The notes below the pieces were generated by a model. The model had not been told where the DNA came from. It ran no database searches and saw only the letters and a program-made list of their open reading frames with translations. A stretch of 32,000 nt of DNA from Candidatus Saccharimonadota bacterium (GTDB taxonomy: Bacteria; Patescibacteriota; Gracilibacteria; BD1-5; UBA2023), in contig OY970170.1 of NCBI GenBank assembly GCA_963706795.1, positions 720,001-752,000 on the forward strand, in the 5' to 3' direction. Positions 6,686-27,683 of the stretch are shown piece after piece. How positions within the stretch are numbered: position 1 is the stretch's first letter; each line of letters opens with the position of its first letter. Made by a program: the position numbers and the translations under genes.

Positions 6686-6706
6686 TAATTATATAATCTC
6701 ACTACT

Positions 6707-7153: not shown

Positions 7154-7155
7154 AA

Positions 7156-7182: not shown

Positions 7183-7185
7183 ATG

Positions 7186-7590
7186 TTAGCAAGGATGCCG
7201 TTCCGAATCCCGAAAATGGGATCGAAATATCCGAAGCTCACAAGTGGTTTCGTATATAAAAACTGCGTTTATTTGTTGGTCTTCCCCCAGATCAATAGTG
7301 AGAATTTTATTTGTATCTTGGAAGACGATGAACACTTTGTAGACGTTGGTATCATCCATGTCTGCATTTGTTTCGAGCATCATCTTTATTGGTTTGTAGA
7401 CCGTGAGCTCGTGCACTTCACTCATATCGATTGGGGCGTTGGTTGTATAGAAAGCCAAGGCTTTCGTTATATGAGCAGCTTCCGTCTCTTCGATATGTGT
7501 TCCATTGCCAACAATAATGCAACCGCCATCAGCAGGATCATAATCAACCAGTGTGACAAATTCTATATCTGGTACTTCCTTTTGGTTCAT
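7186..7590 (-). CDS. hypothetical protein
   Basis: 134-aa ORF with an AAGGAG Shine-Dalgarno 7 nt upstream of the ATG. It ends in TAA and is followed by a terminator. Acidic, no recognised domain. Confidence 0.6.
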   Translation of the reverse strand: MNQKEVPDIEFVTLVDYDPADGGCIIVGNGTHIEETEAAHITKALAFYTTNAPIDMSEVHELTVYKPIKMMLETNADMDDTNVYKVFIVFQDTNKILTIDLGEDQQINAVFIYETTCELRIFRSHFRDSERHPC

Positions 7591-7783
7591 AGCATGCTCC
7601 TTGTGTGATGTTGTGAACTTCTTGTATTATTGCTTCGATGGCATAATAGTCAAGCAGGCAGAAGAGACTGAGACATAAAATATATCCTCCCTTCTTTAAT
7701 CCATCTATAAATCCCGCCCCTCAGCACATAAAAAACTTTTTATTCTCTCGTCATAAAGTAGAATAGCCCGCAAAAATCTACCT

Positions 7784-10003
7784 ATGAGAAAAACCGCCCT
7801 GTTTGTATTGTTTTTTGGATTCTGTTCGAGTGCGTTTGCGCTCGATTTTCAGACCTTCCGAGATCCAAAAATCCAAAGTTCATACGATCAACTTCGTACC
7901 AAACTTGAGACACGCTATCAAAATGCCTATCCGCTCTCAGACGCGCAACTCAAAAATATTGCGAACTCTGAAGCGACCATCATCACCGCTTATCGTAAAC
8001 TCGAGTGAGCAAAAAATCCTCGTGCACGCGTCCAGGCAAATACCGGCCTCCGCACCCAAACGAAGGCGCTTGATCGCATCCTTGCTGATATCGAAAAAGC
8101 ACGAAAAGGTTCGGTTCTCACTAACTCCAATCCGAGTCCGTTTCCGATTCCAACAACTGGAACAGTTCCGTCGTACGATCCTAATGCACCAGCTTCGACG
8201 GTCTATATACCAAGTAGTTCAGACAACTCCAATACTCCGGTAGTTCCTGCAACTTCCGCTCCACCGATTCCGGCATCTAATGATGCACCGCAAACTCCAT
8301 CAGTCGATACTTCTCTTGCAGCAAGTCTGCTCTACTACGCGGATAGTTTTGAAGGCGGTGGAACAGCAGGTGGAGATAAATTCCGTCAGGGATGATTTTC
8401 GGCAGCGAGGTGTGATGTGACAATTAACTCATTTTTGCAGGTCCGTTATGGCGGTAAGTCCGTCATCGTAAAGGCAAACGACCGACCAAATTGCGCGAAG
8501 CATCCAGATATCGTTGATCTCACAACGACGGCATTTCGCACGCTCGCACCACTCTCGAGTGGCAAATTAGCGGGTTCGTTTATTGCACTCGACAAGACTC
8601 CAAAAGGACTCGTTAAAGAGTTTATACCCACTGATTTCTTTGCGAATTATTCTATCAAACTCGATGCGAATATCCCCAATATTTATCTGCCTAATGAGAC
8701 ACTCAAGCTCTCAGGGAAGACCACTGGATCCGAAAATGAAACCCTCGTCTATCTCCAAATGCCTTCTGGTAAGACGCTCACACTTGGGCAGGATAATCTC
8801 AGCGGCAATCGTTTTGAGTATTACTTCCCACTTACCGAAATCGGTACTTATCAGTTTGTAGTAGCTTCTGGACGAAGTTTTGCAGGCGCGCGATCGCTTA
8901 TGTTTACAGTGCTTGATCCTAAGGTGCTTGCAAAAAAATACTACGAAGGAAATGTTGCTGCAGTAAATGGTATCACGGTTTCGGGGCGACGCGTGGAGAC
9001 AGGTGATCTCACTCCGACAAATCTTGTCTCTGTTAATTGACTTCCAGACAATACACTCCGGTCTGTTAAGATTACGACAGCGAATGGTTCTGTCAGTCGT
9101 ACGAGCATGTCAGATGTAGCCTTTAGTCCTCGTGAACTCAGTATATTTGAAGACGGATCCCGCGCCCGAGTTGATGTAACTGCGCGATCGAGTTCCACTC
9201 CGTATTCGATTGATACCTACACAAATTCGACTCCTGTCTTCTCAGATGAATACGTCTTGGCTCCTGCATACACTGTTGAGAGCAGCGAAAATATCGCTGT
9301 TCAGGCTCAAAATGGCGTCCTCACGGTCAAAATCGGCAATGGGGTTACTAAGGCAATCCGCAACAAAGTCTATGTTATGACGCCAAGTGGCGGGGTAGAA
9401 GAAGTTTCATTTGATGCTGCGTTTACAGGTCCAAATGGTGCTCTCGCAAACACGAATGGTGCCAAGCTCACTCATAAACTCACGGAGGATGGAGTCTATC
9501 TCGTAGAAGTCCTCTATGACACCGGCTTTGCTGCCTATCTCGGACCAGTTATGAATGGAAAAGTCCTCCCAATCCTCCCAAATGTCTATGATCTTGCCTC
9601 CAAAGATGTCAGCACGGATGTGGCAAGTGCTCAATCGGATATGCTTGCCTCGATCAATGCGATCCGCAAAAAACGTGGCCTGAGTCCAGTTGCACTCGAT
9701 GCTAATCTCAATCGACTCGCTAATTTTAAGGCGCAGGATATGGCCGACAATAACTATGTTGGACATGTGGATTCGCAGGGTGGATATATCGTAGATACTG
9801 CAAAGCGCGCAGGCGTTGAACTCCAATGATCGATTGGCGAAAATGTCGCCGGTGGAACGGTTGGTGCGATGTACCTTCAATCAGGACTTCTCCTCTCAGG
9901 TGCACACAGATCAAATATGCTCGGCACTCGCTGGACTAAAGTCGGCATTAGCATCGTTGTCAAAGGTGACAAGACCTCAGTTGTTCAGGTATTTGCACCA
10001 TAA
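7784..10003 (+). CDS. secreted protein with RlpA-like double-psi beta-barrel domain and C-terminal CAP/SCP (YkwD-like) domain
   Basis: Signal peptide MRKTALFVLFFGFCSSAFA. Track ORFs 7784-8008, 8417-9040 and 9107-9829 share one frame and join through TGAs at 8006, 8393, 9038 and 9827. DPBB-like: YYADSFEGGGTAGGDKFRQG[TGA]FSAA...VIVKANDRPNC...IVDLTTTAF. CAP-like: INAIRKKRGLSPV...NYVGHVDSQGG...GENVAGG...GAHRSNML. Stop is TAA 10001. Confidence 0.75.
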
Positions 10004-10029
10004 TTTAGAAAATTCAGACAAAAGAAAAA

Positions 10030-10051
10030 CGCCGAACTAGTCGGCGCTTTT
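10030..10051 (+). terminator. rho-independent terminator
   Basis: cgccga-actag-tcggcg hairpin followed by cTTTT. Confidence 0.6.
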
Positions 10052-10094
10052 AAAACATCCCTCCTTTTTAAAGGATGTCTCAGGATTTTGTGTG

Positions 10095-10592
10095 TTAAAA
10101 CGTGACGTATCGCTCGTCCGCTAACATTGCTTTGTTTACTTCTGTGTACTTAATTTCTTTAGGAATCGCCGATACCTTGATATTCATATCAAAGTAATCA
10201 ATGGCGATATATTCATCTTCCCTGATATAGCGGAAGAAGCTGCCGATGAATTCTTTTTTCCAGCCGATGTCTTCGCTTTCGAGAAGGGCACCAGTGTGAA
10301 TCAAGATTCCGATGCATTCAAAGCTCGACTTCAAGAGCTTGACTGCATCGTTGAGGGAAAGTGTACGGCCATATGCTTGCATGTATATGGCCATGACGTT
10401 CTTCTCTTCATTACTTCTTTTGGTGCGTGGTTCATCCGAATATGTAAAACAATCCGGATAATCCTGCACTGTCGTGAAGTATTCAGCGAACATCCGACGT
10501 GCCAGTTTGCTTTCAGACGGTAAGTCTTCAGGTATGATGCCTAATTTCCTGAGCTTATCGAGTCCTTCTACTATTGTATAAGACTTTAGCAT
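10095..10592 (-). CDS. hypothetical protein
   Basis: 165-aa intact ORF with an AAGGAG Shine-Dalgarno upstream of ATG 10592 and a TAA stop. No recognised domain. Confidence 0.65.
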   Translation of the reverse strand: MLKSYTIVEGLDKLRKLGIIPEDLPSESKLARRMFAEYFTTVQDYPDCFTYSDEPRTKRSNEEKNVMAIYMQAYGRTLSLNDAVKLLKSSFECIGILIHTGALLESEDIGWKKEFIGSFFRYIREDEYIAIDYFDMNIKVSAIPKEIKYTEVNKAMLADERYVTF

Positions 10593-10924
10593 GATTACTC
10601 CTTTGGTGTGCTGTTGGTATTGGTATTGAATTAAAAACCCCCCGATGACTCGAGGGATTTTTAACGTATCTTGACTTTATACGCGACTAAATCCCTCGTG
10701 TTTGACGAAGTAGATTAATCGCGAGAACGTTTTGTCTGAAAGACATAAATGTTGTTGATACGAAAGTCTTAAGGAGAGTAATGTTGGCACCAGGAATGTC
10801 AATTTTTATTTGTGACAAAAATTCACTTTTTACTCACCAAAACTTCACTTCATCTTCACCTCGCCTTCCTTGACCTTGGTAATAAGTCTCATAGGATGAG
10901 CAAGATTTAACCCCTGCTTAATAC

Positions 10925-13237
10925 ATGAGAACCTTTTTTACTTCAGCAATCGTCTCAGTGCTTGCACTCTGAACGATAGGTCAGATGACCACATTTGCAG
11001 ACGTTACAGATACTTCACTCCTTATTAAGGATAAGCCGGTAGCTACTCCCGACTTTTCGGTGAAGACCTTTGCAAGCTGTACTGATATGCGTACAAAAGT
11101 AGCAGATTTCATGGAGCTCTATTACGAAAAGCATCCTCCATACCAGTATCCCATCTATGATAAGGGTGGACCAATGATGCTAGAAACTACTGCTCCAATC
11201 TCAGCAGTTCCTCCTGCTGCCGCAAATGTTGGACAGTCAACAGGCGGTAAGTCTGCTACTTCTGCCGATCATTCAACAACCAATAGTCGTACGATCGGCG
11301 TTGATGAGCCAGAGCGTGTAAAAACTGATGGAAATTACCTCTACTCTGCCAATGATACAGAGCATATGGTCTACATCCACAAAGCTGACGACACACTCCA
11401 GATTATTAAAAAGATCGCGCTTCCAGCGGAGTATTCAAATACCGAGCTCTTCGTTGATGGTGATCGTCTCGTGATTGTCGCAAGTAAATATGTATATAAC
11501 AATCTCTATCGTTCAGCTTGGATCGATCGCGCATCTAAGACGGTCGTAGTAACATATAATATCGCGGATATTAATAATCCAGTGATTGATCGTTACTACC
11601 AGATCGATGGGAACTATCGTGAAGCACGCCTCACAAATGGTGAGCTTACTGTGCTCTCAACTACGAGTTTTAATTTCCCATATGAGCGCTATGTTCGTCC
11701 ACACGTAAAGGGAACAGAGCTCATTATTGATACTGACAAACTCACAAGCGAATTTTCTTCTGCGAATGTTCTTCCTCGTAAGATCGAGATTGCACCAACG
11801 AGCAAGATCGACAATATTAATGACTACCTCACGGATTCTCGTAAGACTGCACGACTTCGTGAACTCTACGCGGGTAACTGTGCTGATGTGTCCTATGTTT
11901 TTCCAGATGCGAAGACACTTGAGTCATATAACTTTACGCCAAGTTTTACGGCCGTTACAACGCTCAATATCCGTAATAACAAGCAAAAATCACATACGAA
12001 ACTCCTCTTTGGAGATGTAGACAAGACCTATGTTTCGCCTACAAATAAACTCTATGTAACTTCGACACTTTACTCGCCATATTCAAATGCATGTCCTCCT
12101 GGGGCGATGTGTCTCATGAGATTTATGCAGTCAGGGACGAATACCCTCATTCATAAATTTGATCTCAGTAATCTCGGAGCACGCTACGAACAGACAGGAA
12201 TCGTCGGCGGATCGCTTCTGAGTGATTACGCAATCGATGAAGGAAGCGATGGAAGTGTCCGCGTAGTAACTCACAAGACAGACGGCAAGACCGACAATGT
12301 TGTATCAGTGCTTGGTAAAAATCTCATACCCGTATCTACTCTTGCCGGCATCGCTCCAACCGAAAATTTCCAATCTGCGAGATTTATCGGGGACAAGCTC
12401 TATCTCGTGACCTTTAAACAGATCGATCCACTCTTTGTAATCGACCTCGCGGATTCAAAAAATCCAAAGATTCTCGGTGAGCTCAAGATTCCAGGATATT
12501 CGACATATCTTCACCCATATGACGCGACGCACCTCATTGGTATCGGCTATGATACTTCGACAAATGAATGGGGAGGTACGCAAAATAATGGAATCAAGAT
12601 CGACCTCTATGACATCTCGGATTTTAAAAATCCAAAACAGCAGTCGACACTCACGCTCGGTAATGGACCAAGTACCTACTCTGACGCACTGAGCAATCCA
12701 CGCCTCTTTGTATGGCAAAAATCCAAGAATCTTCTCTATCTTCCAGCAAGTCTCTACAAGGTTCCGGATACAAAAAATCCATACCGATATAGCGACATTT
12801 TCCAGGGAGTTGTTGCACTCTCGATCACACCAGAAACTGGCGTAGTCGAAAAAGCCCGCACAACTCACCTCGATATCATCGACGACAAGACACTCGAAGC
12901 AGCTCGCACCAAAGAATGTCTCGCATATTCCGCACCAAAAACTCCCGTATGTAAGAAGCTCATCGGAGGTGGAGAATACTGTGAGTCAGCAGGTTCGACT
13001 TATGTCCCAAGCTATTGCTACGCGGATTCACCTATCTCAGAATACAAGGCCACACAGATCTGGAATTACTCAAATAATTTCATCGATCGAGTTCTGTATT
13101 CAGGAAACCGCCTCTTCACCTTCTCAAATGCTCGTATCGATTCACTCGATATCGACGCAGGACTCCTCCAGAAGGGAAGCGTCAAAATTATGACAGAAAG
13201 CGGTTCAGTGGTGCCTACGCCAAAGCCAATGTACTAA
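10925..13237 (+). CDS. secreted beta-propeller domain protein (COG4880 / Beta_propel family)
   Basis: Extended upstream through TGA 10970 to ATG 10925, which yields the signal peptide MRTFFTSAIVSVLAL[G]TIG. Family hallmarks: VDEPERVKTDGNYLY and ARFIGDKLYLVTFKQIDPLFVIDLADSKNPKILGELKIPGYSTYLHPYDATHLIGIG. Confidence 0.85.
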
Positions 13238-13294: not shown

Positions 13295-13460
13295 AATTCG
13301 CAGAATAAAAAAATTTTGTCTTCAAAAATTAATAAATAATTAATAATTATGGATATTGTAGGTTGGTAAGGGTCGAGCTTTCAAGGAGGAAGCTCGACCC
13401 TTGCTTTGTGTCTGCACAGCATTCGTGCCAGTCTATACATATTTCTTCTCCTTTTTCTTC

Positions 13461-16400
13461 ATGAATTCACTTCGCAAGAAAGTATGTGCCATCTGGATGA
13501 TCGCACTCATAGTATCATCCCATCTCAGTATTGTAGAGGCCTCGAGTGGCCTGACTGACTTGGATAATTCGATCAACTCAAATCAATGAAATATAGAATC
13601 AAAGAAATGAATGGAGGAAGGAAGTGGAGGGATGCTCTCATGAGCTACTTTTACCGGAAACCTCTTGCCGGTATTAGCTCCTGAAAGTATTAACCTCGCT
13701 CCGGAGTCTCTTAAAATAGATACACCAACAATATTTACTGGGGCTACTGCCACAGGAACATCATTGTCTGGTGCAAGTCTCAAAGACGCCCCAGCCATCG
13801 ACTACAGTACCTATAAATATTACTCAGGATCATTTCTCTATAACGGTATAAGCTATGGGAATGGACTCTATTCCGATGATCTAGGGCTTCCACAATCGAA
13901 TATCCCAAATGTTCAAATTTATAGTTATAACGATTATCAAAAACTCAACACACCAAAAACCAAGACATTAAGTGCAAAGACATTCTCAACTCAGTCAACT
14001 CAGGGTGCTCAAGTATTTTCTATATCTTCGACAGGCCTTATTGGAAAGTGGGACTTAAATGGTAGTCCGGCTGATAGTAGTGGAAATGGAAATAATGCTG
14101 TAGCGAGCAATATGACATGGCCTAACGATTCTTCACTTACCGTGCAGAATAGTGTCGGAAATTTTAATGGCACAAATAGTTATTTAGATGCAGGTGATCC
14201 TTACGTATCAGGTGGAAGTTACATCATTTCTGGTTGGATCAAATCAACTGTTCCAGCAACTTCGGGTGATTACAATATCATCTATCGATATTCAGACTCT
14301 GCTGGTTATGACACGAGTCGAGTGTATTTTGGAGGATACGGCACCAATGCTCTCTATTGGAAGTTTATCACCGGTAATAATGCCGACGCAAATAATACCT
14401 TTGTTATCAGCAAAACATTTAACTCAAATCAGTGGTATCATGTTATCTTTGAGCTCGATAATGTAGACAAGAAAGCGCGATTTTATCTTGATGGTTCCCT
14501 CTATGCTCAGCAAGCATTCACGGGTGAAGTTTCAAAATCAAATCTTTCAGGACCACATAAGCTGTATTTCTGAAATCGATGGTACAATTCACAAAATGAA
14601 GGATGGAGTGGTAAAATGGCGCTTTTACGTTTTTTTAAGCGAGAGAAACTCTCGTCTTCTGAGGTGCAATCTCTCTATTCTGAAGGACTCTCGGCTCCTC
14701 CGACTCCATCCACCTCGGTGCCCTCTAGTATGTACCCCGCACCCTACCTCAGTGCTTACGCATGATCAACCTCCCAAATCGTAAACCGCAATAGTTTCCT
14801 CATTGGTGGTATGACGCTTGGATCGGACTCACTTATTGATCAACATTGGTCACTTTGAAACGACAAACATGGTGCAAAAAATGCGAGTGATGATGCAGCT
14901 GATCCTGTAAATCTCTCGAATGGTGAATTTACCTACGACAATACATTCGCGCATATTCCTGGCGTAAAAATCCCGTATGATTTTTCGCTCACTTATCGCA
15001 ATCAGTTGACCTACGATGGGCCGGTGGGGAATAGCTTCGATCACAATTATAATATCTTCCTCGCCGAAAATGCAGGGGATGGATCGGTGAGCTTGTATAA
15101 TGGGAAGCTCGGGATATTTAATTTTGCAGCTTCGGGATCGACATTTGCATATAGCCCTGGACTGAAGGCGAATCTGACAAAGAACGCGGGGCTGTACACG
15201 CTGACTTTTGATGATGGGATGGTGTATTCTTTTGGAACCAATCTCAAAATCTCAAAGCTTGCAGATCGCTATGCGAACGCACTCAATTTTGCTTATAACA
15301 CAGATAAGCAACTCACGACCGTGACGGATACGCTTGGTCGCGTGATTACGTATGCGTACAACGCAAATGCACGACTCTCGAGTGTAACAGACTTCAATGG
15401 AAGGGCGGTAAATCTCGCGTATTACGCAGCAGGTGATGCGGGTGGATCGGCGAATGATCTCAAGTCGGTGACGATTGCTGTTGGTGCGAGTACAAAGACT
15501 ATCTCATTTAGCTATACAGGATCGCACAATCTCCAAAATCTCATTGATGCGAAGGGGCAGACATATGTTACCAATACCTATGACACCAACAATCGCGTCC
15601 TCAGTCAGGTCTATGGATCAGGTACGACGAGCTATATATATGCGCTTACCGGCTCGATTGTAGCGACAAATACGGTAACTAATGCCAATGGTACTCAGAC
15701 GAAATATACTTTTGATGCCAATGGGAATACCACAAAGCGTGAGATTAATGATCTCACTGGTACAGGTGTAACGGTCTACAATTACGTATTTGATGCCAAT
15801 GCGCGTCTTATCAAGACGATTCTGCCTCGTGGGAATGGCAGCACATACAAATATGACAGCCGTGGTAATGTGATTGAGAAGCGTGAAAAAACCGATGCAA
15901 ATGCGGTAGATGGATCGTCTGATCTTGTGACGAACTATGTCTATGATGGCGTGTTTGATGTGCCTACGAGCATGACGCTCCCAAATGGATTTCAGAAGAG
16001 TTTTGTACTCGATGGAACAGGGAATATTCTCCAAGAAAGTGCTACGGGTATCATCAATCCCGATGCTACGACCTACAACACGACGACCGTTTACGAATAC
16101 AACCCTCAGGGCCTTCTTGCTAAAAAAACTGATGCTGAGGGGAATCAAACGACCTATGCGTATGGTTCTGGTCAGGTTATTACGGTGACGCATGGGACGG
16201 GCAGTATTGCTTCTACCGAATCTCTGAGTTATGACGCCTATGCGAATATCCTCACGAGTACTAATGGAGAAGGGAAAACTACCACATTTACCGTGACACC
16301 ATTTAATCTCACGGCGAGTGGTAAAACTACCGAAGGTATCGAAACTCGTTTTATCTATGATGCCAATAACAACAAAACCCGCCAAGAGACCTACACCCAA

Positions 16401-19400
16401 AGTGGAGGAATTGTCGGAGTGATCACATACGAATACGATATCCTCGATCGTCTCGCTAAAAAAACCACGCAGGTAGATGCGACAACATCGCTCGTAACCG
16501 TCATGACTTACGACCCAAATGGCAATATTCTCACAAACAAAGAAGGTTCCGGCGCGACTATCAAATATACCTACGACGCCATGAATCGCGCTACCGAAAA
16601 GCGCATTGTCATGGACCCAAATAATGCTTCGCTCGATATCGTGACAAGCTTTGTATATGACCGTAATGGTAATCAGATAAGAGTGACCGATCCGCTTGGC
16701 AATCAGACGATTTCTAATTTTGATCTCTTCGATCGCCCAATTAAAAAGACCGATCCGACTAGTACATACGCAACCTATTCATATGACAAAATAGGGAATG
16801 TTACTGAGGTTGATGCGTATAGCACAGGCAATACGCTGCTTCAAAAGACGACTTCGCTCTATGACGGACTCGGGCAAAAAATCCAGACGACTGCTTTTGA
16901 TCTCACAAATGCAACGCCCGTAAATATCGTCACAAGCCTCAAGTACGACAAAAATGGACATCCCAAAGAATCCACCGATGCCAAAGGCAACAAAACAACC
17001 ACGACATATGACAGTCTCGGGCGACCATCTCAGATTACAGATGCACTTGGTAACAAAACGACCAGTGCCTACGACAAGCGCAATCTCGTCATCTCAAAGA
17101 GCATCGTCCCAAATACGGGTACAGGTGTCATCACAACCACTTCGCTCTATGACAATGACGGCCGCCTCACTCAAGAGACCAATAATCTTGGGAAGACAAA
17201 AGCCCTGAGCTATAACGCTCTCGGACAGGTAATCAGCGCAAAAGACGAAGAAAATAACATCACCAACTACGCCCGCAATTTTATCGGGAAGCCCACTACA
17301 GAGACTAAATATCTCTCTGGAGGAACGACTGTAGTCACGGGTTACAGTTATGACGAACGTGGCAATCTCACATTGATCACGGACGCAAAAAACAATGCGA
17401 CAGCCTATCAATATGACGCACTCAATCGCACAACCAAAGTCACCTATCCAGACAGCAAAATCCTCGTATCTGTCTATGACAAAAATTCCAATCTCACGAG
17501 CCAAACTGATCCAAATGGGACGGTCGTAGCAAATGTCTATGATCCTCGCAATCTCCTGACCACTAAGACTATCACTACAGGAACGGGGGTCATCGGTATC
17601 ACTTCCGAGGCCTACAGTTATGACGCACTTGGCCGACTCATCTCCGGCAATGACAGCAATCTGAGTAAGCTCGATTTTTCCTATGATAGCCAAGGAAGGC
17701 TCTTGTCTGAGACCAACTCTGGTACAGTGGTCGGGTACAATTATGATGCCAATAACAATCTCACGAAGCTCATCTATCCTGATCTCCGAGAACAGGTCTA
17801 TGGCTACGACGCTCTCAATCGTGCGACAAATATCACCTACAGCGGAGGTACGATTGCCACATATAGCTACAGCGGTATTGTAAATACCGGCATCACCTAC
17901 GGCAATGGAAAAACTGTCGCTCAGACCTTCGATGGGGTATTAAGGCTTCAGTCGCTAAATAATGGGATAAATTCGTATACCTACAGCTATGATGGCGTCT
18001 GAAATATCCTCGCCGACGGACAAAAGAACTACGCCTACGACACCCTCTATCGCCTCACTAATGCGAGCAGCGCACAGAGTGGAACAACCCTCGAATCCTT
18101 TAATTATGACAAAGCCGGCAATCGCACGAGCGATCTTGGGAATGCCTACACGAGCAATGCACTGAACCAATATTTGTCACTCTCAGGAGCCACGAATGTC
18201 GTCTACATCTACGATAATAACGGCAATATCACCGACAACGGCCGATATACATTCCAATACGACTACAAAAACCGTCTCCTCAAAGTAAATTCTGGCAGCA
18301 CCAACATCGACGAATTTACCTACGACATCCTCGGTCGCCGTATCACCAAAAAATCTGGCAACGAAACGACCAAATACGTATTCGCCGACAAAAATATCCT
18401 CACCGAAGCCCGCACCCAAAGTGGCTCAACCACCTTCCACAAAACCTACATCAACGGCCTCGGTACCGACAATCTCCTCGCCTATGACAACGAGGAAGTC
18501 AATCTCTCTCCAAGCGACAAGGAAGAACTCGGTTTCTGCAACACGAATGTTCTCTCTGCAACTGGGAGCTTCATCAAGTATGGCTACCAAAATATCGTAG
18601 ATCGATGTAATACACTCGGTAACTCAGGTTCAACCATCGTCACTAATCGATACTTCTTCCACAAGAATCATCTTGGAAGTGTTGTAGGGCTTACGAATAA
18701 CACATGAGTTCTCGTAGCAGAGTACCAATACGATACCTTCGGAAATCCTTCAGTACGAACATGAACTGGAGTATTCACCAAGGTTACACAAACATCACAG
18801 CTTTCATATGACAATACTCGATTCTTCACTGGGCGAGAATATGACAAAGAAATCGGACTCTATTACCTAAGAGCGAGATTTTATGATCCAACAACTGGAA
18901 GATTCATATCTAGAGATCCTATAGGTCAGAATGATCAGGTGAATCTGTATACGTATGTTGGGAATAATCCGTTAGGGTTTGTGGATTTGATGGGGATGAG
19001 TAGCAAACCGGCTGCTCTTACAGATAAAGAAAGATTTGAAAAGATTTCACAATTCATGCAGAGTAAAACATTTAGAAATTCTCTTTATAAAGAAGGCAAT
19101 ACTCAATCAATAGATTATTTGTGGGTATATTCGTTGCAAATTTCTAATTGAAATGTTCGTGATGCTTTTTCAACTATAAACAGTGCTGTCAGAGGTGTTC
19201 CACAGTATGATGAAGATGAAGTTGCTCAAAGTATTCGCAATTGAGTTATCCCTACTGGTTTAACATGAAAATATGAAGGTGGCGAATATGGCAATAAAGA
19301 TAAACTTCAACATTTCTTTAAGGCAGCTCAAATTTCCTATGTATTATCTGTATCGAATGATGTTGATATAGGGGGTGCAACAGTTGAAATTCTCTGACAA

Positions 19401-19568
19401 GGTAAAGAGATATTTCTAGATGAAATTCCGTATGCTTTCCATATTAAGGATGAGTGATATGATGCAAAGGATATAGACGCGAATAGAACTGGTGCCCAAT
19501 TCGGAAGATATCTAAAGAGGTATGAGAATTCAAGTGGTAATGTTTTACCCTCTTCTATTATTAAATAA
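13461..19568 (+). CDS. RHS/YD-repeat polymorphic toxin, WapA-like (signal peptide, LamG, YD repeats, RHS core, C-terminal toxin CT1)
   Basis: Track ORFs 13401-, 13665-, 15006-, 18174- and 18939- all lie in frame 0 and fuse through 14 TGAs with no TAA/TAG, giving 2035 aa. Signal: MNSLRKKVCAIWMIALIVSSHLSIVEA. Dozens of YD repeats (YxYDxxGNxxxxxD). Core end: RFFTGREYDKEIGLYYLRARFYDPTTGRFISRDPIGQNDQVNLYTYVGNNPLGFVDLMGM. Stop is TAA 19566. Confidence 0.92.
14034..14687 (+). other. LamG / concanavalin-A-like lectin domain of the RHS protein
   Basis: GKWDLNGSPADSSGNGNNAV...FNGTNSYLDAG...ISGWIKS...NQWYHVIFELD...ARFYLDGSLY...GKMALLRFFKREKLSSSEVQSLY matches the LamG_3 pattern. Confidence 0.75.
18641..18998 (+). 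repeat. RHS core 3' homology block, copy A (in the full-length gene)
   Basis: cactaatcgatacttcttccacaagaatcatcttggaagtgttgtagggcttacgaataacacatgagttctcgtagc... recurs at 20040. The first ~75 nt have only a few mismatches; the remainder is clearly homologous but more diverged. Confidence 0.9.
18999..19565 (+). other. CT1: variable C-terminal toxin domain of the full-length RHS protein (function unknown)
   Basis: Begins immediately after the ...VDLMGM core boundary, where similarity to the two downstream cassettes stops abruptly. 189 aa, with 5 in-frame TGAs. Confidence 0.7.
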
Positions 19569-19577
19569 GATGATCTT

Positions 19578-20036
19578 ATGTATAAAAAGTGGCTTGTTGC
19601 AGTTTTAGTTGTGTGGATTTTATTATCTCTTTTGTCGATGATAAATAGCAAATATTTTGTCAGCGATGTCCAGCACACAGAAAGTGTAAATATACTAAAT
19701 AAATCGACAGCAAATATTCAGATTAAGACACCACAGAGCTCCTCCTTTTTATATCCAGGAGAAAAGAGTGCTTTTCAAGTGGATATAAAAAAGTCTATTC
19801 AAGAAAGAATGTTTCAGATTCTAAATAGCAGTGGAGCTGTTATTTTCAGCTATCGGGACTTTGTCAGGCCTGCTAATGATAACGTGACTTGATATGAGGA
19901 GGCTCTAAAGGGAATTTATACCACAGGAAGTCTTTCTGTCCATACAACAGTGAGTCATAAAACAGACGCATACTACTTTCCGTTTTATATACTTAACGAG
20001 ATTATGGAACATGCGATCCATATTGATGTTAATTAA
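19578..20036 (+). CDS. putative immunity protein 1 (N-terminal membrane anchor)
   Basis: Starts 9 nt after the RHS stop. MYKKWLVAVLVVWILLSLLSMI forms a TM helix. One TGA (19890) is read through to TAA 20034. The assignment rests on its position immediately downstream of the toxin tip. Confidence 0.6.
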
Positions 20037-20868
20037 TATCACTAATCGATACTTCTTCCACAAGAATCATCTTGGAAGTGTTGTAGGGCTTACGAATAAC
20101 ACATGAGTTCTCGTAGCGGAGTACCAATACGATACCTTTGGAAATCCCTCTGCTAGATCAGGAAGCGGAGCATTCACAAAGATTACTTCAACTACTTCGA
20201 CACTCTACGACAATACTCGACTCTTCACTGGGCGAGAATATGACAAAGAACTCTCACTCTACTACCTAAGAGCGAGATTCTATGATCCAACAACTGGAAG
20301 ATTCATCTCACGAGATCCGATTGGGCAAAATGACCAGATTAATCTCTATGTATATGTCGGTAATAATCCGATGAGATTTGTGGATTTGATGGGGATGAAG
20401 ACAAAAATAGTCGCGACAATCACAATTTATTCCAGCAATGGATGAGCCTCAAGCGATTGAGATATTAGTGCTTGACATAGTTGGATTGAAATCACAAACA
20501 AGAGTACCAATATAACAATCACTTACTGACTATGGCCTAATAGATGATGAGAGGATGAGCCGAAATGGAAGGCTAAGCCTATCTTTAATGGTATTCAGAC
20601 TAATGGTCCAGAAAAATCGTATACTGAAAATGACTACAAACAAGCCGCATCTTTAACAATGTCACTAAACAAAGATCAATTAAAAGCAGTGAGAAGCAGT
20701 ATAGCAGATCAAATTGTTGACTGAAAGACCTGGGGTAACTTTGCACCTTGCTCAGACTTTGCATCGAATGTATGGAATTCTGTATCTAACAATACACTAG
20801 AAGATAGAAACGATTTTGGTCTAAGTAATCCGACTACTTTATTGAATTCTATTAACTCTTATAAGTAA
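20026..20868 (+). CDS. orphan RHS C-terminal cassette 1 (core fragment + toxin CT2)
   Basis: Homology to 18641-18998 starts at 20040. The frame is open back to ATG 20026, overlapping the immunity-1 stop. Peptide: (M)LINITNRYFFHKNHLGSVVGLTNNT[G]VLVAEYQYD...NNPMRFVDLMGM, followed by an unrelated 156-aa tip with 7 TGAs. Stop is TAA 20866. Confidence 0.8.
20040..20397 (+). repeat. RHS core 3' homology block, copy B
   Basis: Collinear with 18641-18998 and the same length (358 nt). Confidence 0.9.
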
Positions 20869-20873
20869 TTAAT

Positions 20874-21248
20874 ATGAAAAAATTCCTCACTATTCTGCTG
20901 GTAGCAATAGCATTATGATTAGTTATTTTCATATATGCTAAATATTTCTGGAAAGGCTCTTATATCCAAAATGGATGACAGAATATAAGAGTGCAATTAC
21001 GCTCTAGTGATGTAGAGTTTACTGTATCACCTATATCTTCTGCAAACTGAATAACTGCCATAGATACAAGATTAGATATCTCTAAGCGTAAAATTTATGT
21101 ATGGTATTATGCCAAATTTGTCAGTTTATTGAGTGGGCAAGGAGATTGAGGTAATACTCACATAAATATACCTGGAGAATATACTGTTATTTATTTAAAT
21201 CCTGATGGCACGGAACAGTTCATACAGACTATTTCTATAGAAAAATAG
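20874..21248 (+). CDS. putative immunity protein 2 (N-terminal membrane anchor)
   Basis: ATG sits 5 nt after the CT2 stop. MKKFLTILLVAIAL[G]LVIFIYAKYFW forms a TM helix. 124 aa, 4 in-frame TGAs, TAG stop at 21246. Confidence 0.6.
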
Positions 21249-21251
21249 TCA

Positions 21252-22079
21252 GATCCCTCTGTAAGATCAGGCACTGGAACATTCACAAAGATTACTCCAA
21301 CTACTTCGCCACTCTACGACAACAGTCGACTCTTTACTGGACGAGAATATGACAAAGAAATCGGACTCTACTACCTAAGAGCGAGATTCTATGATCCAAC
21401 AACTGGTCGATTTATATCACGAGATCCGATTGGGCAAAATGACCAGATTAATCTCTATGTCTATGTTGGGAATAATCCGTTAGGGTTTGTGGATTTGATG
21501 GGAAGAGAAAGTAAACCAGTGGTGCAGGTTTTTAGTAATGCAAAGAATGATATAAGTAAATTTCATGAAAACTTAGCACTACTAAGATCTAATACTAGCT
21601 GAAAGATGCAGACGATATTGGATAAACTATATCTTCCTTACAATGTAGACGAACCAAGTTCAAGGCCACTTGTTTATGCATATTATTTTAATTTAGAATA
21701 TCATGGCACAGTGCGCGGTGTTACTGGTGAGGGAAAGTATGATTTAGCACTTGGACAAAATGGCTGAGTGAATGCTATGTCATCTTATACGGCTGACGAT
21801 ATGTTTAATATACGTTGAACAAAAATTCCAGTAGCACAAGTTTCCAATGTTCTGACGGCTTTGAATGCATACCGCTTAGGTATTTCTGAAGATGAGCTTA
21901 AGACTGGTGCTATGGCAACGGTAGTTGCTTGAGGAGGGAATGGTATAAAATGAGAGATAAAAGACCATATTCTTTATGATGCAGGATATCAACTCGGTGA
22001 ACTTGAGAGATCGGGTGTATTAACAGATGAGATTCTTCTTCAGAAGCTTATTGATGCATCTCAAAAACGAGGTGACTAA
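21252..22079 (+). CDS. orphan RHS C-terminal cassette 2 (shorter core fragment + toxin CT3), no start codon at its 5' boundary
   Basis: Homology (atccctct..agatcagg...) starts at 21253, matching 20144 and 18745. It is in frame with immunity 2, directly after that gene's TAG. Peptide: ...FTGREYDKEIGLYYLRARFYDPTTGRFISRDPIGQNDQINLYVYVGNNPLGFVDLMG, then a unique 191-aa tip with 5 TGAs. The first in-frame GTG/TTG/ATG are at 21489-21498. Stop is TAA 22077. Confidence 0.75.
21253..21503 (+). repeat. RHS core 3' homology block, copy C (5'-truncated)
   Basis: Collinear with 18745-18995 and 20144-20394. Confidence 0.9.
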
Positions 22080-22105
22080 CTCAATATTTCTTATCTTAGA
22101 TTGCT

Positions 22106-22639
22106 ATGAAACTTATCTATATCCTATTTGCGCTTGTTTCTGTATTTGGATACTTCTTGTATTTCAATGACGACTACAGCTTTGAGAAAAATAAGAAGCA
22201 AATTATAAATGATAGCGTTATAAGAATAGCAAGTGCACACGCTGAAATTGATATTCACTGAGATCAATTTCAGAAGGCTTTATTATTGCTACATAAGAAT
22301 TCAGTGAGTTTTTTAAGTTTTACAGGTACGGGTGCTATCGAGTATCAAGCAAATGATAATATGTATTCATTAGGCCAAGGACCTTTGACGAAGGATGAAA
22401 TATCCTCAATACAAGATTTGTATTCTCAGGCTCACATTGATCAAATCTATAGCAGAGATAACTTGGATACTTATTTCATAAAAGCACCTAAATTAGAAAT
22501 TTCTTTTGTATACTCGATTAAAGAAAGAAATTTCTATCCTACAGAAAAGGTAGGATACTGATTTATTATTGATGAGTATAAAAATTGGTGAATCCTGCAA
22601 TCATGTACTCGTAATACATGTCAAGAATGACAAAAATAG
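22106..22639 (+). CDS. putative immunity protein 3 (N-terminal membrane anchor)
   Basis: MKLIYILFALVSVFGYFLYF forms a TM helix. Track ORF 22286-22561 is extended in both directions through 4 TGAs. 177 aa, TAG stop at 22637. Confidence 0.6.
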
Positions 22640-22663
22640 ATTAACCTTAACTACCTACTAACT

Positions 22664-23902
22664 ATGAAAAAACAGAATTTCCTCATTGCAGGATCCTCCC
22701 TTTTTCTTCTCTTCTGAGTATTTATTTCCAGTCCTCTTATATCCAACATTGTCCATGCGGAAGATACTCCAGTGACAACAGTTACTGCGGGTGGTATTCG
22801 TGTGCCAAATATACCAAAAGATCGCACAAAAAAGGGGCCCATGGTCATGGATTTTATATCTTTGCTTAAAGCAGGGAAATATACGGAGGGGCTTGCAGTA
22901 TATAGGGAGGCTATCAAAATAGCAGATCACCCAGAATTCCTCACGGGTGAAATGTTTATTGATAAAAAGATTGTTACACGACTGGCGAGTCTGAACAAGA
23001 AGCTAGAAGTTGCTAAAACAGCTACTAGCAAGAGCAATCTGCTCATTTTGCAAGGAAATGCTCGTTACGATGCATGAAACTATCTCTACTATCGTGACAG
23101 ACAAAAATATAGCTTGGTGGTACTCTATCAGTACCTGCTTGCAGTGGAGGCATTTGATAAATCCATCCTTATTACTGATAACTCTATAGCTCACAGGCAG
23201 AAATGAATCGTTATGAATGATCTTGGTTGATCAGAGGATCTGGCTATATCAGAGCTACAAAAAGCAATCGCAATGGATCCTTCAGACGACCGTGCCTTTT
23301 ATAGATTAGGGAATCTCTATTGAAAAAAGAAACAGTATGATCTTGCTATCTCATCCTATCTAAAATCTTTGTCTATTAATGGAAGTAATGAGCTTTCCTA
23401 TCTAAATCTTTGAGCTGCTTACAGTAATGCTTGAGAGGATGCTAAAGCTTATCAAGCCTATAATGATATGCTGAAGATATGTAAAGGCTATTGCCATGTT
23501 GCGGAATATAATATTTGAAGTCAGAAAATGTTTGAAGAAAAATACGATGAAGCTATCGAGTATATTGATCTTGCAATTAAACATGCAGCAGATAAGTGAG
23601 TAGTTTATAGGAATGCTTACCTTTTAAAGTGAACTATGTTTCAACTTCACTTTCGACCTCAAGAAGCATTAACAAATCTCAAAATGGCCGTGAATGATCC
23701 GAAGGAAATAAATACTGATGATAATAATCATAGTATATGTGATTATCCGGCTAGAGTGCATGCAAGAATTGCAGCAGCATATTTTGATCTTGGTGATCTT
23801 GAAAATTCTAAAAAGGAAATGAATATCAGTATCTCTATGGAGTCAGACGATCCGGAAACCAAACACATCATTGAGGTATGGAAGTCAAAAATGGGGCAAT
23901 AA
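22664..23902 (+). CDS. secreted TPR-repeat protein
   Basis: MKKQNFLIAGSSLFLLF[G]VFISSPLISNIVHA is a signal peptide. Track ORFs 22772-23077 and 23636-23902 join through 10 TGAs. TPR-like units: AFYRLGNLY[G]KKKQYDLAISSYLKSL and YLNL[G]AAYSNA[G]EDAKAYQAY. Confidence 0.75.
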
Positions 23903-23973
23903 GTTTACGTATCAATTGCTAAATTTATCGACATGAAATTGCATTAATTAATTCAATCTCCTCAGATCCTTTT

Positions 23974-24417
23974 ATGCGTATTCTCAAGAAGATATTTGTA
24001 TGGATTGTATGTCTTTGTTGTGGGTTATATGCGCTTATGACAGCGGATCTATTTTTCGGAGGTAAACTTTGAATGATCTATACATGATTATATTTGCTAC
24101 AATTGAGTGAGCGGCACTACGTAAATAGAATGTCTTCAGAGTATGAAGAGTACTTTAGGAAGTATATCCGTGGGGTCACCATTTCTGAATGGAAACTCTC
24201 TGATTTCCCTCGTGATGGTGAAATACAAATCTCAAGTTTCACTGCATCATGATCGAACTTAATACTTGTTTGAGGCAATCGCTTCTTACTTCTACATACC
24301 AAAGATGCTCACATTCTAAATGATGTAATAGATTTATCTTTTGTTACTAGGGTTTTAGATTCAAATTGGTTTGTTCTTGCTCCCTGCACGCGACTTTTTT
24401 GTCAGCTCGAGAAGTAG
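23974..24417 (+). CDS. small membrane-anchored protein (immunity-like architecture)
   Basis: Invisible in the standard-code track. ATG 23974 to TAG 24415 is open with 4 TGAs. MRILKKIFVWIVCLCCGLYALM forms a TM helix, followed by a ~115-aa domain. Confidence 0.55.
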
Positions 24418-24470
24418 GACTTACAGACAGTTGTTGTGAGATTTTCATTTAAAATAGCTTTCAATTTCTC

Positions 24471-24938
24471 ATGCAAAAACATATTTTATCGATCTTCTTG
24501 CCTATCGCTTGAGCGTTCATTCTTGTCCTAGCTGTTTTTGGTTATTTAGGCTGGTTTCCTGTATATAGTAACTTTGTCGGTAATACACAACAGTACAATG
24601 ATTTAGTAAGACTTATCCATGCTACTAATACAAAGGAATTTATATACGCTAATAAACCAGGATTTTGCGAGGATTGAAATTGTGATAAATGAACAATTGA
24701 TAAGATATTGTCTGCAATGGATAATCTCAAAATCGAGAGTATTGATAGTCGAGAAAAGGATACATACTGAATTATCTTTTATCTCAAAAAGGGTTGGTGG
24801 ACAAACAATCCTGCAATTTACCGATATAAAAAGGATAATTTTGGAGATACTGATGTTCATTGATGAGATGCAAAGAGAGCATGAACCGAAATTATTGAAA
24901 AGTATAACAATAGCTGGGTGCAACTAGATTGGCGTTAA
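24471..24938 (+). CDS. small membrane-anchored protein (immunity-like architecture)
   Basis: ATG 24471 to TAA 24936 is open with 7 TGAs, including a TGA-TGA pair. MQKHILSIFLPIA[G]AFILVLAVFGYLGWF forms a TM helix. Confidence 0.55.
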
Positions 24939-25456: not shown

Positions 25457-26164
25457 ATGGAAGTAACAGATCGAAATGTATGCCAGACTCTCAGGGATAC
25501 GTATGGACTTCGTAGTCTCCCACCTGATGTGGTACAGGTGTATCTAGAGAAACATCAATATGATGGCTTCAGTCAAAATGTACAAGCACGTCACAAAGCG
25601 ATATGGTGGTCGTTGTTCATTGTATTGAATCTCGCTGCGATCGTTCAGAGCTATATATTCGGTACGAGCATCAGTGGTTGGTTCAACATAATGACTTTGA
25701 TTGTTTCGTTCGCAAATATGTATCTCGTTGCTAATCTTCTTCGGATTATCTTTGGCGTTCACAGCTTTCATAAGGAGATGGAAGCTGCACAAGATACATC
25801 GAAGGTGATCGCGAAGTATTCAAATGAAGAGAAAGGATATGACTTGTTACGTCTCTCGTTTGAGTATCAGTGGGTATGTTACGAAGATCTCTCAAACTTC
25901 ACCATTGTTACTCTGCGCTGTCGGATCATATTTTGTATCATCCTGCTTTTAATGGGGTATGTAGAACATACTGTAATTCTCGTATTCTTGTTTGTAATAA
26001 CCGGCTTTGGCCAATGGTATGCGCAAACCAAAATTCATTCATACCTCTCGGCTCTGGCTCATTTCTATAATGACCCAACGAAGTGATACATACTGGTTGT
26101 TTCGCAAATATTTCCCTCTTTGGCGCCAGAATTTTGGCGTCTTTTTTGTGCTTCAAAATATTAA
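25457..26164 (+). CDS. 4-TM paralog family protein, copy 1 (function unknown)
   Basis: GGAGGTGTATC-ATG context. No internal TGA. N-terminal motif LRDTYGL and C-terminal motif QTKIHSYLSAL are shared with copies 2 and 3. The standard-code ORF ends at TGA 26084-26086. Under code 25 the first stop is TAA 26162, beyond the terminator. Confidence 0.65.
26122..26147 (+). terminator. terminator of unit 1
   Basis: ggcgcca-gaattt-tggcgtc hairpin followed by T6. Confidence 0.8.
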
Positions 26165-26203: not shown

Positions 26204-26271
26204 CCGACGCAGTCTTCCAGGCAATGCACTGGATCACATACATCAAATCATACAAATACAGGAGGTGTATT

Positions 26272-26988
26272 ATGGAAAATCTTCCAGAAGATGTACCGCG
26301 GATGTTGCGTGAGAGGTATGGCAAATACTTCCCATTATCGGAAGAAATGGTCGTGGCTTATGAAAATAGACGAGGGACGAACGAGCTCATTTTAACAACG
26401 TTGCTGTGGGTAATGATTCTGCTCGTTGGTGTGCCAATTATGTTCGCATATTGGCAGTCACATGATCAGAATTTTGCTCGATTTCTTGCTATTCTGGCCG
26501 TAGTCTCGGTCATTCCATATGTGAGAGCTATCACTCTCATGGAGGGAATCAGGGAGGATGTAGAGTTATTCAACAATACGATTGCGGGTATTGATGAAAA
26601 AGAGCGTGCTCGGATGATTCAGAGTCACTTTATTGAATCAACTACGCCTGAATTACTCGAAGGTTGCTTCAAATTTGAGTGGATCAAGTATTCAAGCCCG
26701 CTTCTCTATGTTCGTCTAGCGCTTCAGTTGCTGTTCTGCATTATTCTTGCAACAGTACAGCAATGGGAATTTAGCATATTCCTCATAGCAGCGCTTGCTC
26801 TGCATGCCTATTACAAAATAGAAGCGCAGGGGCAAATTCATAAATATTTACAAAACCTACTCGACTTCAAGAACCATCCGATGCATGAGTGGTACTGAAT
26901 GTTGGGGGTATCGCATTGGGGGCACCGAGAAATCGGTGCCTTTTTTATGACTCACTCATGCGGTTGACATATATTTTCCACTTCGTAA
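26272..26988 (+). CDS. 4-TM paralog family protein, copy 2 (function unknown)
   Basis: AGGAGGTGTATT-ATG context. No internal TGA. Motifs LRERYGK and QGQIHKYLQNL. The standard-code ORF ends at TGA 26896-26898. Under code 25 the first stop is the TAA inside the -10 box of unit 3 (26986). Confidence 0.65.
26921..26946 (+). terminator. terminator of unit 2
   Basis: ggcaccga-GAAA-tcggtgcc, a perfect 8-bp stem with a GNRA loop, followed by T6. Confidence 0.85.
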
Positions 26989-26991
26989 ACT
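26964..26991 (+). promoter_or_regulatory. promoter of paralog unit 3 (TTGACA-N16-TAAACT)
   Basis: TTGACA at 26964-26969 and TAAACT at 26986-26991. Confidence 0.7.
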
Positions 26992-27068
26992 CTGATCAGT
27001 TTTCCGATTCGGTTGAGCTGGATTACCAAATCTGATTCATATCAAAACACAGAGAATGGAGGTATATC

Positions 27069-27683
27069 ATGTACAGCAAGCAAAACATTAATTCGTGTTT
27101 AGCTCATACGTATGGTCTGCAGGAACCATTGTCACCAGGTCTTATTGCTACATATAACAAAAAAGTCGTGGGCATTCCTGAGCTGGCATCATTTGCCTTT
27201 TGGCTTGTCTTGGGAATGGTGAGTGCCTCCTGTATCATCTTTTATGTTGATATAAAAGATCTCATGATTGGCTTTGGAGTCGTTGTTATTATCCTTAATG
27301 CTCATCCCATAAGGAGTATCCGTTGTACAACATCCGAGATCCATAGTCTTGCTATGCAGATGAGCGGTACTGAAGGTGAGCTGAGATCTCGCATACTCGA
27401 ACGACATCTCGATCAATCGAATGCTCAGTATTTGCTTGAGAGATGTTTTAGATATCAACATCTCTGTATTTGGCCAAAATTAGCGCTGTTGCGCTATGCA
27501 TGCTGTGCAATCTTTTACGGGGCGCTTCTATTCCAGGGGCAATACTGGCTCGCTGTTGGAGTGATTGCATCAGGCTTAGTAAGCATGTACCAAATAAGCA
27601 AAGCACAAGAGTACATTCAGTGGTACTTGCTGCAACTTATGGAAAAGGCGGGCGTGAAGTTTTTGATTATATGGCAAGTGTAA
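27069..27683 (+). CDS. 4-TM paralog family protein, copy 3 (function unknown)
   Basis: TGGAGGTATATC-ATG context. 204 aa, no internal TGA. Motifs LAHTYGL and KAQEYIQWYLLQL. It ends in a genuine TAA upstream of its terminator. Confidence 0.75.
   Translation: MYSKQNINSCLAHTYGLQEPLSPGLIATYNKKVVGIPELASFAFWLVLGMVSASCIIFYVDIKDLMIGFGVVVIILNAHPIRSIRCTTSEIHSLAMQMSGTEGELRSRILERHLDQSNAQYLLERCFRYQHLCIWPKLALLRYACCAIFYGALLFQGQYWLAVGVIASGLVSMYQISKAQEYIQWYLLQLMEKAGVKFLIIWQV

Follow-up and report, generated by a model that had tools for sequence, protein, structure and literature searches.

WapA of Gram-positive bacteria is a Sec-dependent RHS protein with a wall-binding domain, tRNA-cleaving (tRNase) tips in B. 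subtilis and several tip variants across strains (PMC12704120), and the orphan toxin pieces of enterobacterial rhs loci generally lack initiation signals (PMC3150448). In this report we compare with these systems a locus in a 32,000-nucleotide stretch of Candidatus Saccharimonadota bacterium (GenBank assembly GCA_963706795.1, contig OY970170.1, positions 720,001 to 752,000; Gracilibacteria in GTDB), the whole of which we call the window and in whose numbering all coordinates are given. The Patescibacteria, or candidate phyla radiation (CPR), are usually described as minimal, dependent cells. An original prediction had nevertheless placed at 13461-22639 of the window a WapA-like polymorphic toxin gene followed by two silent toxin/immunity cassettes, in a bacterium using genetic code 25. 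Domain matches, repeat structure, 61 related loci and a test of the code together uphold the core of that prediction, a main RHS gene with two orphan tip/immunity cassettes, and we consider it probable (about 0.82) that this is an RHS/YD-repeat polymorphic toxin locus in a bacterium reading TGA as glycine, acting by the mechanism proposed below. Our literature searches turned up no paper on RHS toxins or other polymorphic toxins of Gracilibacteria or any other Patescibacteria; one activated-sludge study does list an "Rhs family" gene, as one of the phage-derived transfers into genomes of the CPR.

The main RHS gene and its genetic code

The main RHS polymorphic toxin gene occupies 13461-19568 on the forward strand. 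Under translation table 25 it is a single open reading frame (ORF) of 2035 residues with 14 in-frame TGA codons, read as glycine, and no TAA or TAG before the terminal TAA at 19566-19568, as the original prediction had proposed; table 11 splits the same stretch into several ORFs. Hidden Markov model (HMM) searches with the fused protein matched the RHS repeat, the Rhs core and Laminin_G_3, all three as foreseen. The protein begins with a signal-peptide-like N terminus (residues 1-27, 13461-13541; MNSLRKK / VCAIWMIALIVSS / HLSIVEA|SS), where a basic n-region, a hydrophobic h-region and a V-x-A (V-E-A) site can be made out in MNSLRKKVCAIWMIALIVSSHLSIVEA|SS by eye and with a hydrophobicity scan, and the N termini of the full-length relatives in loci L027, L031 and L037 are likewise signal-peptide-like. 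Next comes a Laminin_G_3 domain (residues 236-403, 14166-14669; E=9.6e-16 when the N-terminal 456 residues were scanned alone), which is a concanavalin-A-like lectin domain; this LamG region is homologous to that of the L027 RHS protein. It is followed by DUF6531, an N-terminal domain preceding RHS repeats (residues 481-545, 14901-15095; E=9.3e-11), and by a YD/RHS repeat region of about 1200-1230 residues (15096-18776), for which Pfam RHS_repeat gives E=3.2e-84 over nine stretches, NCBIfam YD_repeat E=3.6e-57 and RHS_core E=7.8e-43. The RHS domain matches exceed the curated cut-offs, and this includes the Rhs-associated core itself (TIGR03696; residues 1773-1846, 18777-18998; E=1.5e-22, 79.9 bits against a cut-off of 32.5). 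The core ends in NNPLGFVDLMGM and is followed by a tip of 189 residues. It carries the motif RDPIG-x17-DLMG, both aspartates of which are invariant across the clade (alignment A1), and its terminal PLGFVDLMGM is a variant of PxxxxDPxGL in which P, D and G are kept, DP is changed to DL and the final L to M. In the relatives the boundary motif takes the form D(L/R/P)xG.

The reading of TGA as glycine was tested on relatives of the core. Searching reference genomes for the core region gave four loci, all in metagenome-assembled genomes of Candidatus Gracilibacteria and the best at 67% identity, and a metagenome scan with the core alignment added 57 more, making 61 related loci (designated by L numbers) with 101 core domains. 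When the 97 distinct core domains from the window and these loci were aligned with TGA masked, 164 TGA codons fell into 19 columns, and the ordinary codons at these columns encode glycine in 64% of cases (background 8%) and tryptophan in 0.2%. This rules out code 4, in which TGA is tryptophan, and establishes TGA as glycine (code 25), as originally predicted. Glycines conserved in the YD repeat (YDGVgN), the core (NNTgVLV) and the LamG domain are among the positions at which TGA stands, and opposite the TGA for residue 1768 of the main gene both orphan core copies have GGN codons. The recoding is window-wide: nearly all plausible genes have in-frame TGA, and code 25 fuses fragments elsewhere too. 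Most of the related RHS ORFs are also rich in TGA (241 codons in L038, 139 in L008, 118 in L031), and a minority come from standard-code organisms.

Several side observations concern the use of this code. The aspartyl-tRNA synthetase gene (29421-31214; 51.5% GC) has no in-frame TGA and the Beta_propel gene uses TGA for 2% of its glycine codons, TGA use being very uneven among the genes of this genome. No tRNA genes or Rfam families were found in the window. Code 25 also opens an antisense ORF of 1022 residues inside the RHS gene (14625-17693, reverse strand), which is almost certainly an artefact of a code with two stop codons; ORFs of this sort could mislead gene callers in recoded genomes.

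Core copies, tips and partner genes

The core HMM finds exactly three core ends within the window, one in the main gene and two downstream of it. The stretch 18640-18994 of the main gene is repeated at 20039-20393 with 84.5% identity overall and 100% over the first 79 nucleotides, 18745-18994 is repeated at 21253-21502, and both orphan copies match Rhs_assc_core (E=8e-24, 83.9 bits each). In all three copy pairs identity drops to 0.25-0.43 directly past the DLMG codon, and because the nucleotide identity of the three copies falls to random right after it, we take the PLGFVDLMGM motif to mark the boundary between conserved core and variable tip. Orphan cassette 1 (20011-20868, forward strand) consists of a core fragment of 118 codons (20039-20397) and tip 2; the copy starts three bases past the stop of the preceding small gene, and an in-frame ATG lies upstream at 20011, from which the ORF is counted. 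Orphan cassette 2 (21249-22079, forward strand) consists of a core fragment of 85 codons (21249-21503) and tip 3; its copy follows directly on the TAG that ends the small gene before it, in the same frame, and offers no start codon ahead of a GTG at 21489. The recurrence of some 120 core codons that had been described is thus accurate for the first copy and too long for the second. Likewise, the description of the cassettes as silent was a deduction that suits orphan 2, with no start codon, better than orphan 1, with its in-frame ATG. Orphan 1 is a mosaic whose 5' part resembles the main gene and whose last 250 nucleotides are 90% identical to orphan 2 and 79% identical to the main gene, a pattern consistent with recombination among the core copies; the 79 nucleotides that orphan 1 shares perfectly with the main gene indicate that recombination has been recent. 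The ORFs of the three tips and of all the small genes are intact: none is frameshifted or interrupted by TAA or TAG.

Each tip is followed by a small forward-strand gene for a protein with an N-terminal transmembrane helix, and we regard these three genes as putative immunity genes: imm1 after tip 1 (19578-20036, 152 residues), imm2 for tip 2 (20874-21248, 124 residues) and imm3 for tip 3 (22106-22639, 177 residues). A homologue of imm1 (E=4e-8) is the next gene after the tip 1 homologue in L045, and a homologue of imm2 (E=4.7e-20) is the next gene after the tip 2 homologue in L010. Farther downstream lies a low-GC, TGA-rich gene for another protein of this type (24471-24938, forward strand; 155 residues, N-terminal transmembrane helix), which is homologous (E about 1e-13 to 1e-14) to the gene after an Ntox44-superfamily tip in L018 and L019. 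It is probably an orphan immunity gene, and the locus therefore probably extends past 22639, where the original prediction had ended it. A possible further orphan immunity-like gene at 23974-24417 (forward strand; 147 residues, N-terminal transmembrane helix) is suggested by weaker evidence, its product having only a C-terminal CTRxxCQ motif in common with imm3. In imm1 and imm3 basic residues precede the N-terminal helix and acidic residues follow it, so the bulk of these membrane-anchored partners is probably outside the cytoplasm. Partners facing outward point to neutralisation at the envelope, which would fit a tip that is a His-Cys hydrolase (see tip 2 below) and fits poorly with Ntox44 as a nuclease.

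The related loci show how tips and partners vary together. An arrangement of a main gene plus an array of core fragment, tip and small gene is common among them, and, as the survey of relatives that had been proposed would predict, the same core is joined to many other tips: the 61 loci hold 78 tips on homologous cores, in 40 families. A small same-strand ORF directly follows 68 of 75 tips. Among these 68 downstream proteins, 49 have a hydrophobic helix at the start and 32 have at least two such segments, and the downstream proteins are more diverse than the tips (74 proteins in 59 clusters). Wherever two downstream proteins are homologous their tips belong to the same family (11 of 11 pairs), and the reverse never occurs (Fisher p=2e-14, non-redundant pairs). 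Such co-variation of tip and downstream gene is the genomic signature expected of cognate toxin-immunity pairs. The pairs are kept together in genomes as much as 19 points of GC apart, which indicates selection on the pair, and L010 even has a tip 2-like cassette followed by a tip 3-like cassette, in the same order as in the window.

Some of these loci deserve mention for other features. Among RHS cores of the Gracilibacteria type the commonest tip family accounts for 17 of the 78 tips (in L001-L005, L013, L031/L032, L034-L036 and L041-L043) and has the motifs ..HG(N/S).. and ..SC(N/D)TG..NSIA..; its match to DUF4347 is at chance level (E=0.18), and in most loci the protein encoded next has three to five hydrophobic segments. 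It is apparently an unannotated, successful family of putative toxins. Behind a signal-peptide-like start, the L027 protein (2351-10957) has a subtilase domain (Peptidase_S8) and LamG copies, and the L031 protein (4556-10927) has RCC1 repeats and Big_5; the N terminus of these RHS proteins thus appears as modular as the tip. In L039 (7487-18043), which is near-standard in code with three in-frame TGA, the core motif stands at residue 943 of an ORF of 3519 residues, and the 2576 residues after it are far longer than any other tip. In L001 (2-6840), the closest relative, the RHS gene is split by a frameshift that is likely an assembly error, because coverage there is 0.88x.

The cassettes differ in composition from the gene that they follow. 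The RHS shell has 46% GC (50% at third codon positions, GC3), and all tips and small genes within 18999-24938 have 31-37% GC (GC3 20-34%), so that this stretch forms a compositional island against 42% GC for the whole window. TGA supplies 39% of the glycine codons in the island and 5% in the RHS body (p=7e-13). Since the cassettes are low in GC and rich in TGA, and since the contigs on which homologous cassettes lie, at 23-33% GC, are without exception TGA-rich, the cassettes look imported, with other recoded lineages of lower GC as the donors. The island also takes in a TPR gene (22664-23902) and the two further small genes beyond it.

The tips themselves gave no Pfam match, even at E<=10, and searches of the PDB with single sequences and family profiles returned nothing significant. 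Tip 1 (18999-19568, forward strand; 189 residues), the putative toxin domain deployed by the main gene, belongs to an unannotated family. Its homologues in L045 (46% identity, E=5e-55) and L040 (28%) share with it the invariant motifs ERF, DK-QHF and YD--DI-AN--G--FG, and Pfam, PDB and profile comparisons detected no link to any known family. Two candidates were rejected: DUF6973 (hhalign probability 0.4%; the L024 segment concerned is itself DUF6973, E=1.2e-15) and the Ntox44 family of tip 3, compared through a C-terminal D..AN..G..FG-like motif (hhalign probability 0.1%). Tip 2 (20398-20865, forward strand; 156 residues) has conserved GHSW and PCSDFA motifs, has a homologue in the tip of L010 (46% identity, E=4e-38) and, like tip 1, matches no Pfam toxin family. 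GHSW and PCS-FA are invariant in its family, which aligns over 114 columns, with both motifs in register, to nine other locus tips of a "GH...NC" (His...Cys) type (hhalign E=1e-4, probability 57%). These nine give sub-threshold matches to the papain-fold models PPPDE and Lnb_N, and our best guess, with moderate support, is that tip 2 is a papain-like His-Cys hydrolase. Matches of tip 2 to Ig light chains are due to chance.

Tip 3 (21504-22076, forward strand; 191 residues) can be placed in a described family through its homologues. Its relatives are in L037, where it is the tip of a full-length RHS protein, and in L018, L019, L010 and L024, and the window copy matches those of L018, L019 and L037 at E=1e-7 to 2e-8. 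Against Pfam Ntox44 (PF15607; gathering score 24 bits) the L018 tip scores 27.8, that of L019 21.5 and that of L037 19.6 bits. Ntox44 was described as an all-alpha domain with the motifs DxK, GNxxxG and DxxxD, found on RHS and other scaffolds (Zhang et al. 2012). GNxxxG appears in the relatives as GNLIYG, GNMIFG and GNFLIG, with SNILVG in L037, and the asparagine of this motif and a downstream aspartate are invariant in the tip 3 family. By transitive homology we therefore assign tip 3 to Ntox44, and the window copy may be divergent or decaying. A resemblance of tip 3 to the MavL macrodomain (E=0.05 with the single sequence) was discarded, the six-member profile giving no PDB match. The view that all three tips are novel consequently holds for tips 1 and 2 in the sense that they are unannotated, and it does not hold for tip 3; moreover, all the tips have recoded relatives. 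Searches of a public protein collection with tip 1, tip 2 and a concatenated profile of the three families gave zero matches. This collection stores proteins of the source contig truncated at the first TGA (imm1 as 104 of 152 residues, a DUF1697 protein as 132 of 175), and the code-25 translations of the RHS, cassette and TPR proteins are absent from it, code-4 versions being present on short Logan contigs only. Because the genome is stored as code-11 fragments, these negatives are no sign of novelty.

Proposed mechanism and competing explanations

The locus appears to be a transcription unit of its own in a neighbourhood rich in exported proteins. A terminator-like hairpin (13365-13405; 18-bp stem with 9 GC pairs) between the Beta_propel and RHS genes likely marks its start, and from 13461 to about 25185 no comparably strong hairpin occurs. 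One strand holds every gene within 13461-24938; the gaps measure -26 to +26 nucleotides as far as the TPR gene, and the two beyond it 71 and 53 nucleotides, a spacing that makes co-transcription of the array plausible. As had been claimed, a domain search of all genes in the 32-kb window found no gene of a type VI or type VII secretion system (T6SS, T7SS), nor any PAAR, VgrG or Tc gene, and no PAAR, VgrG-binding, LXG/WXG or TcB-type domain was found in the main protein. The neighbours encode beta-lactamase-like, GFA-domain and DUF1697 proteins, a MarR regulator, secreted CAP+DPBB and Beta_propel proteins, the TPR protein, several membrane proteins and the aspartyl-tRNA synthetase; no other window gene recurs in the 61 loci, that is, no conserved accessory gene stands beside the RHS genes. 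The upstream stretch 4204-13237 encodes lipoprotein-like ORFs (4204-5208, forward; 5281-5949, reverse), the CAP+DPBB protein (739 residues, 7784-10003) and the Beta_propel protein (770 residues, 10925-13237). Downstream, 25457-26164, 26224-26988 and 26958-27683 encode tandem paralogous multi-pass membrane proteins (pairwise E=1e-3 to 5e-10) with no Pfam match and no relative in the RHS loci.

The mechanism that we propose runs as follows. The RHS protein would be exported by the Sec pathway through its signal peptide, and its YD repeats would fold into a shell enclosing the tip, which the aspartyl-protease motif RDPIG-x17-DLMG would cut free within the shell. The LamG domain would bind surface carbohydrate, and on contact the tip would pass to a neighbouring cell. 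The products of the small downstream genes would act as cognate immunity proteins, countering the toxin at the envelope. Co-transcription of the orphan cassettes would ensure expression of their immunity genes, and homologous recombination within the core sequence that they share could place their tips on the main gene, a replacement that the 79-nucleotide perfect match could permit.

Several points weigh against this reading. Analogy with known systems is the basis for export, autoproteolysis, toxicity, neutralisation and contact dependence alike. The signal peptide was recognised by eye and with a hydrophobicity scan only, promoter-like sites are fewer than in shuffled sequence, which leaves the operon to gene spacing only, and the terminal motif is DLMG-M instead of DPxGL. 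Among the downstream proteins of related loci imm3 has no homologue. Window tip 3 itself has no Ntox44 match at E<=10 and reads SNVLTA at the GNxxxG position, with both glycines gone, and one paper calls Ntox44 a nuclease domain, which fits poorly with an outward-facing, membrane-anchored immunity protein. Finally, the absence of secretion genes covers 32 kb of a 1.27-Mb genome. This last point leaves some room for a T6SS, a T7SS or a TcA/TcB machine of the Tc-toxin kind, with genes outside the window, of which the RHS protein would be the cargo, and most characterised Rhs effectors are indeed T6SS cargo. Such cargo would hardly be expected to have a signal-peptide-like N terminus that recurs in relatives, to lack any PAAR, VgrG-binding, LXG/WXG or TcB-type domain, and to stand in 61 loci beside no conserved accessory gene, with none of the machines' genes in the window; we consider this explanation extremely improbable. 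It is also very unlikely that the main protein is a surface adhesin or structural fibre and the cassettes decaying remnants without function. Giant surface proteins are reported as typical of Vampirococcus, a related predatory CPR bacterium, and the missing start codon of orphan 2, the lost glycines of tip 3 and the lone imm3 are what decay might leave behind, but remnants would not be expected to consist of intact tips and small genes throughout, to keep the core motif and both its aspartates, to preserve tip/immunity pairs across genomes so far apart in GC, or to have recombined as recently as the perfect match indicates.

A different question is whom such a weapon would be aimed at. It might be directed at the host, as a predatory or parasitic device at the contact site between epibiont and host rather than a means of competition among relatives; LamG would then recognise host glycans, the tips would damage the host envelope for nutrients, and the anchored proteins would protect the epibiont membrane. 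The spread of 78 tips over 40 families is more what an arms race among relatives would produce than what a fixed host would, and orphan arrays together with a stand-alone immunity-like gene such as 24471-24938 are a known signature of conflict between users of the same weapon (PMC3150448), and for these reasons, to which the naming of the tip 3 family as a nuclease may be added, we regard a host-directed role as unlikely. Nevertheless, host dependence has been inferred for Gracilibacteria, and the membrane anchoring of immunity candidates in 49 of 68 cases would suit such a role. So would the varied N-terminal modules (subtilase with LamG, RCC1 with Big_5), which vary as target recognition would, and the tips of the pool that match families acting on the envelope, such as NlpC/P60, papain-like and alpha/beta-hydrolase families. 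Neither role excludes the other. In a broader, rather doubtful proposal, the RHS proteins of Gracilibacteria are the contact weapons of the episymbiotic or predatory lifestyle itself and the cassettes form a private toxin pool. The LamG, subtilase and RCC1 modules may then pick the host surface, the tips may breach the host envelope, and the outward-facing anchored partners may shield the epibiont's own membrane. A private pool is suggested because about 40% of the cassette glycine codons are TGA and homologues of the tip/immunity cassettes were found only on other recoded contigs; the code may thus be a barrier around an arsenal that standard-code bacteria could not express.

If the locus is, as we think, a polymorphic toxin system, it has several implications. 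Together with the 61 related loci, it would show that TGA-recoded CPR lineages maintain large RHS arsenals, equipped with spare cassettes and actively diversifying, and cell-to-cell conflict in these populations would therefore be strong. Because recoded genes are fragmented at TGA in the collection, homology searches miss them, and re-translation of contigs will be needed if surveys of toxin systems are not to undercount recoded lineages. The predominance of membrane-anchored partners suggests neutralisation at the level of the envelope, unlike the textbook Rhs and WapA cases. In tips 1 and 2 and the commonest tip family the clade offers candidate toxin domains that are still unannotated, and for each of them a partner is defined.

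Comparison with known systems

Judged on genomic evidence, the locus appears to belong to the RHS polymorphic toxins and, as far as the 32-kb window shows, to neither the T6SS Rhs effectors nor the Tc toxins, the domains of the latter (SpvB, TcdB mid/N) being absent from the window in Pfam searches. With the polymorphic toxin systems of Zhang et al. 2012 it shares a trafficking module, RHS repeats, a variable tip and a linked immunity gene. That work gives Ntox44 general-secretory ("T2SS") trafficking and lists no immunity family for it, whereas the partners here are single-pass membrane proteins; its Ntox44 taxon list names no candidate phylum, and the words "candidate division" do not occur in the paper. 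The likeness to WapA/WapI of B. subtilis and Streptococcus suis extends to the signal-peptide-like N terminus, the large YD/Rhs region, the Rhs-associated core, the variable C-terminal toxin, the small downstream gene and the lack of an adjacent dedicated secretion system. However, residues 1-456 have no LysM, wall-binding repeat or SLH match in Pfam at E<=10, only Laminin_G_3 and Laminin_G_2, and the window has no adjacent gene for a SecF-like protein or a sortase. The tips are not of tRNase types, their only link to a nuclease family being Ntox44 for tip 3, and all three partners have an N-terminal transmembrane helix, unlike the cytosolic WapI and RhsI. The boundary motif is DLMG and not DPxGL, and the genome uses code 25. 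The locus therefore lacks two defining features of WapA, a wall-anchoring domain and a tRNase tip with a cytosolic immunity protein, and the designation "WapA-like" in the original prediction is apt for the proposed mode of export, given a putative signal peptide and a window in which no dedicated secretion system is encoded, and not for family membership.

The enterobacterial rhs loci of E. coli, Salmonella, Dickeya and Yersinia offer the other half of the comparison. They too have a main gene with an array of core-fragment/tip/immunity cassettes, homology that ends exactly at a PxxxxDPxGL-type motif, and cassettes of foreign composition. The difference is that their proteins are T6SS cargo with PAAR/VgrG-linked N termini and cytosolic immunity proteins, whereas here the N terminus is signal-peptide-like, the window shows no T6SS and the immunity candidates are membrane-anchored. 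The architecture is therefore a textbook one, and what is new is the lineage, the membrane-anchored partners, the D(L/R)xG variant of the boundary motif and two unannotated tip families. By analogy with both groups, the locus would seem to follow WapA in the logic of its export and enterobacterial rhs in the logic of its cassettes.

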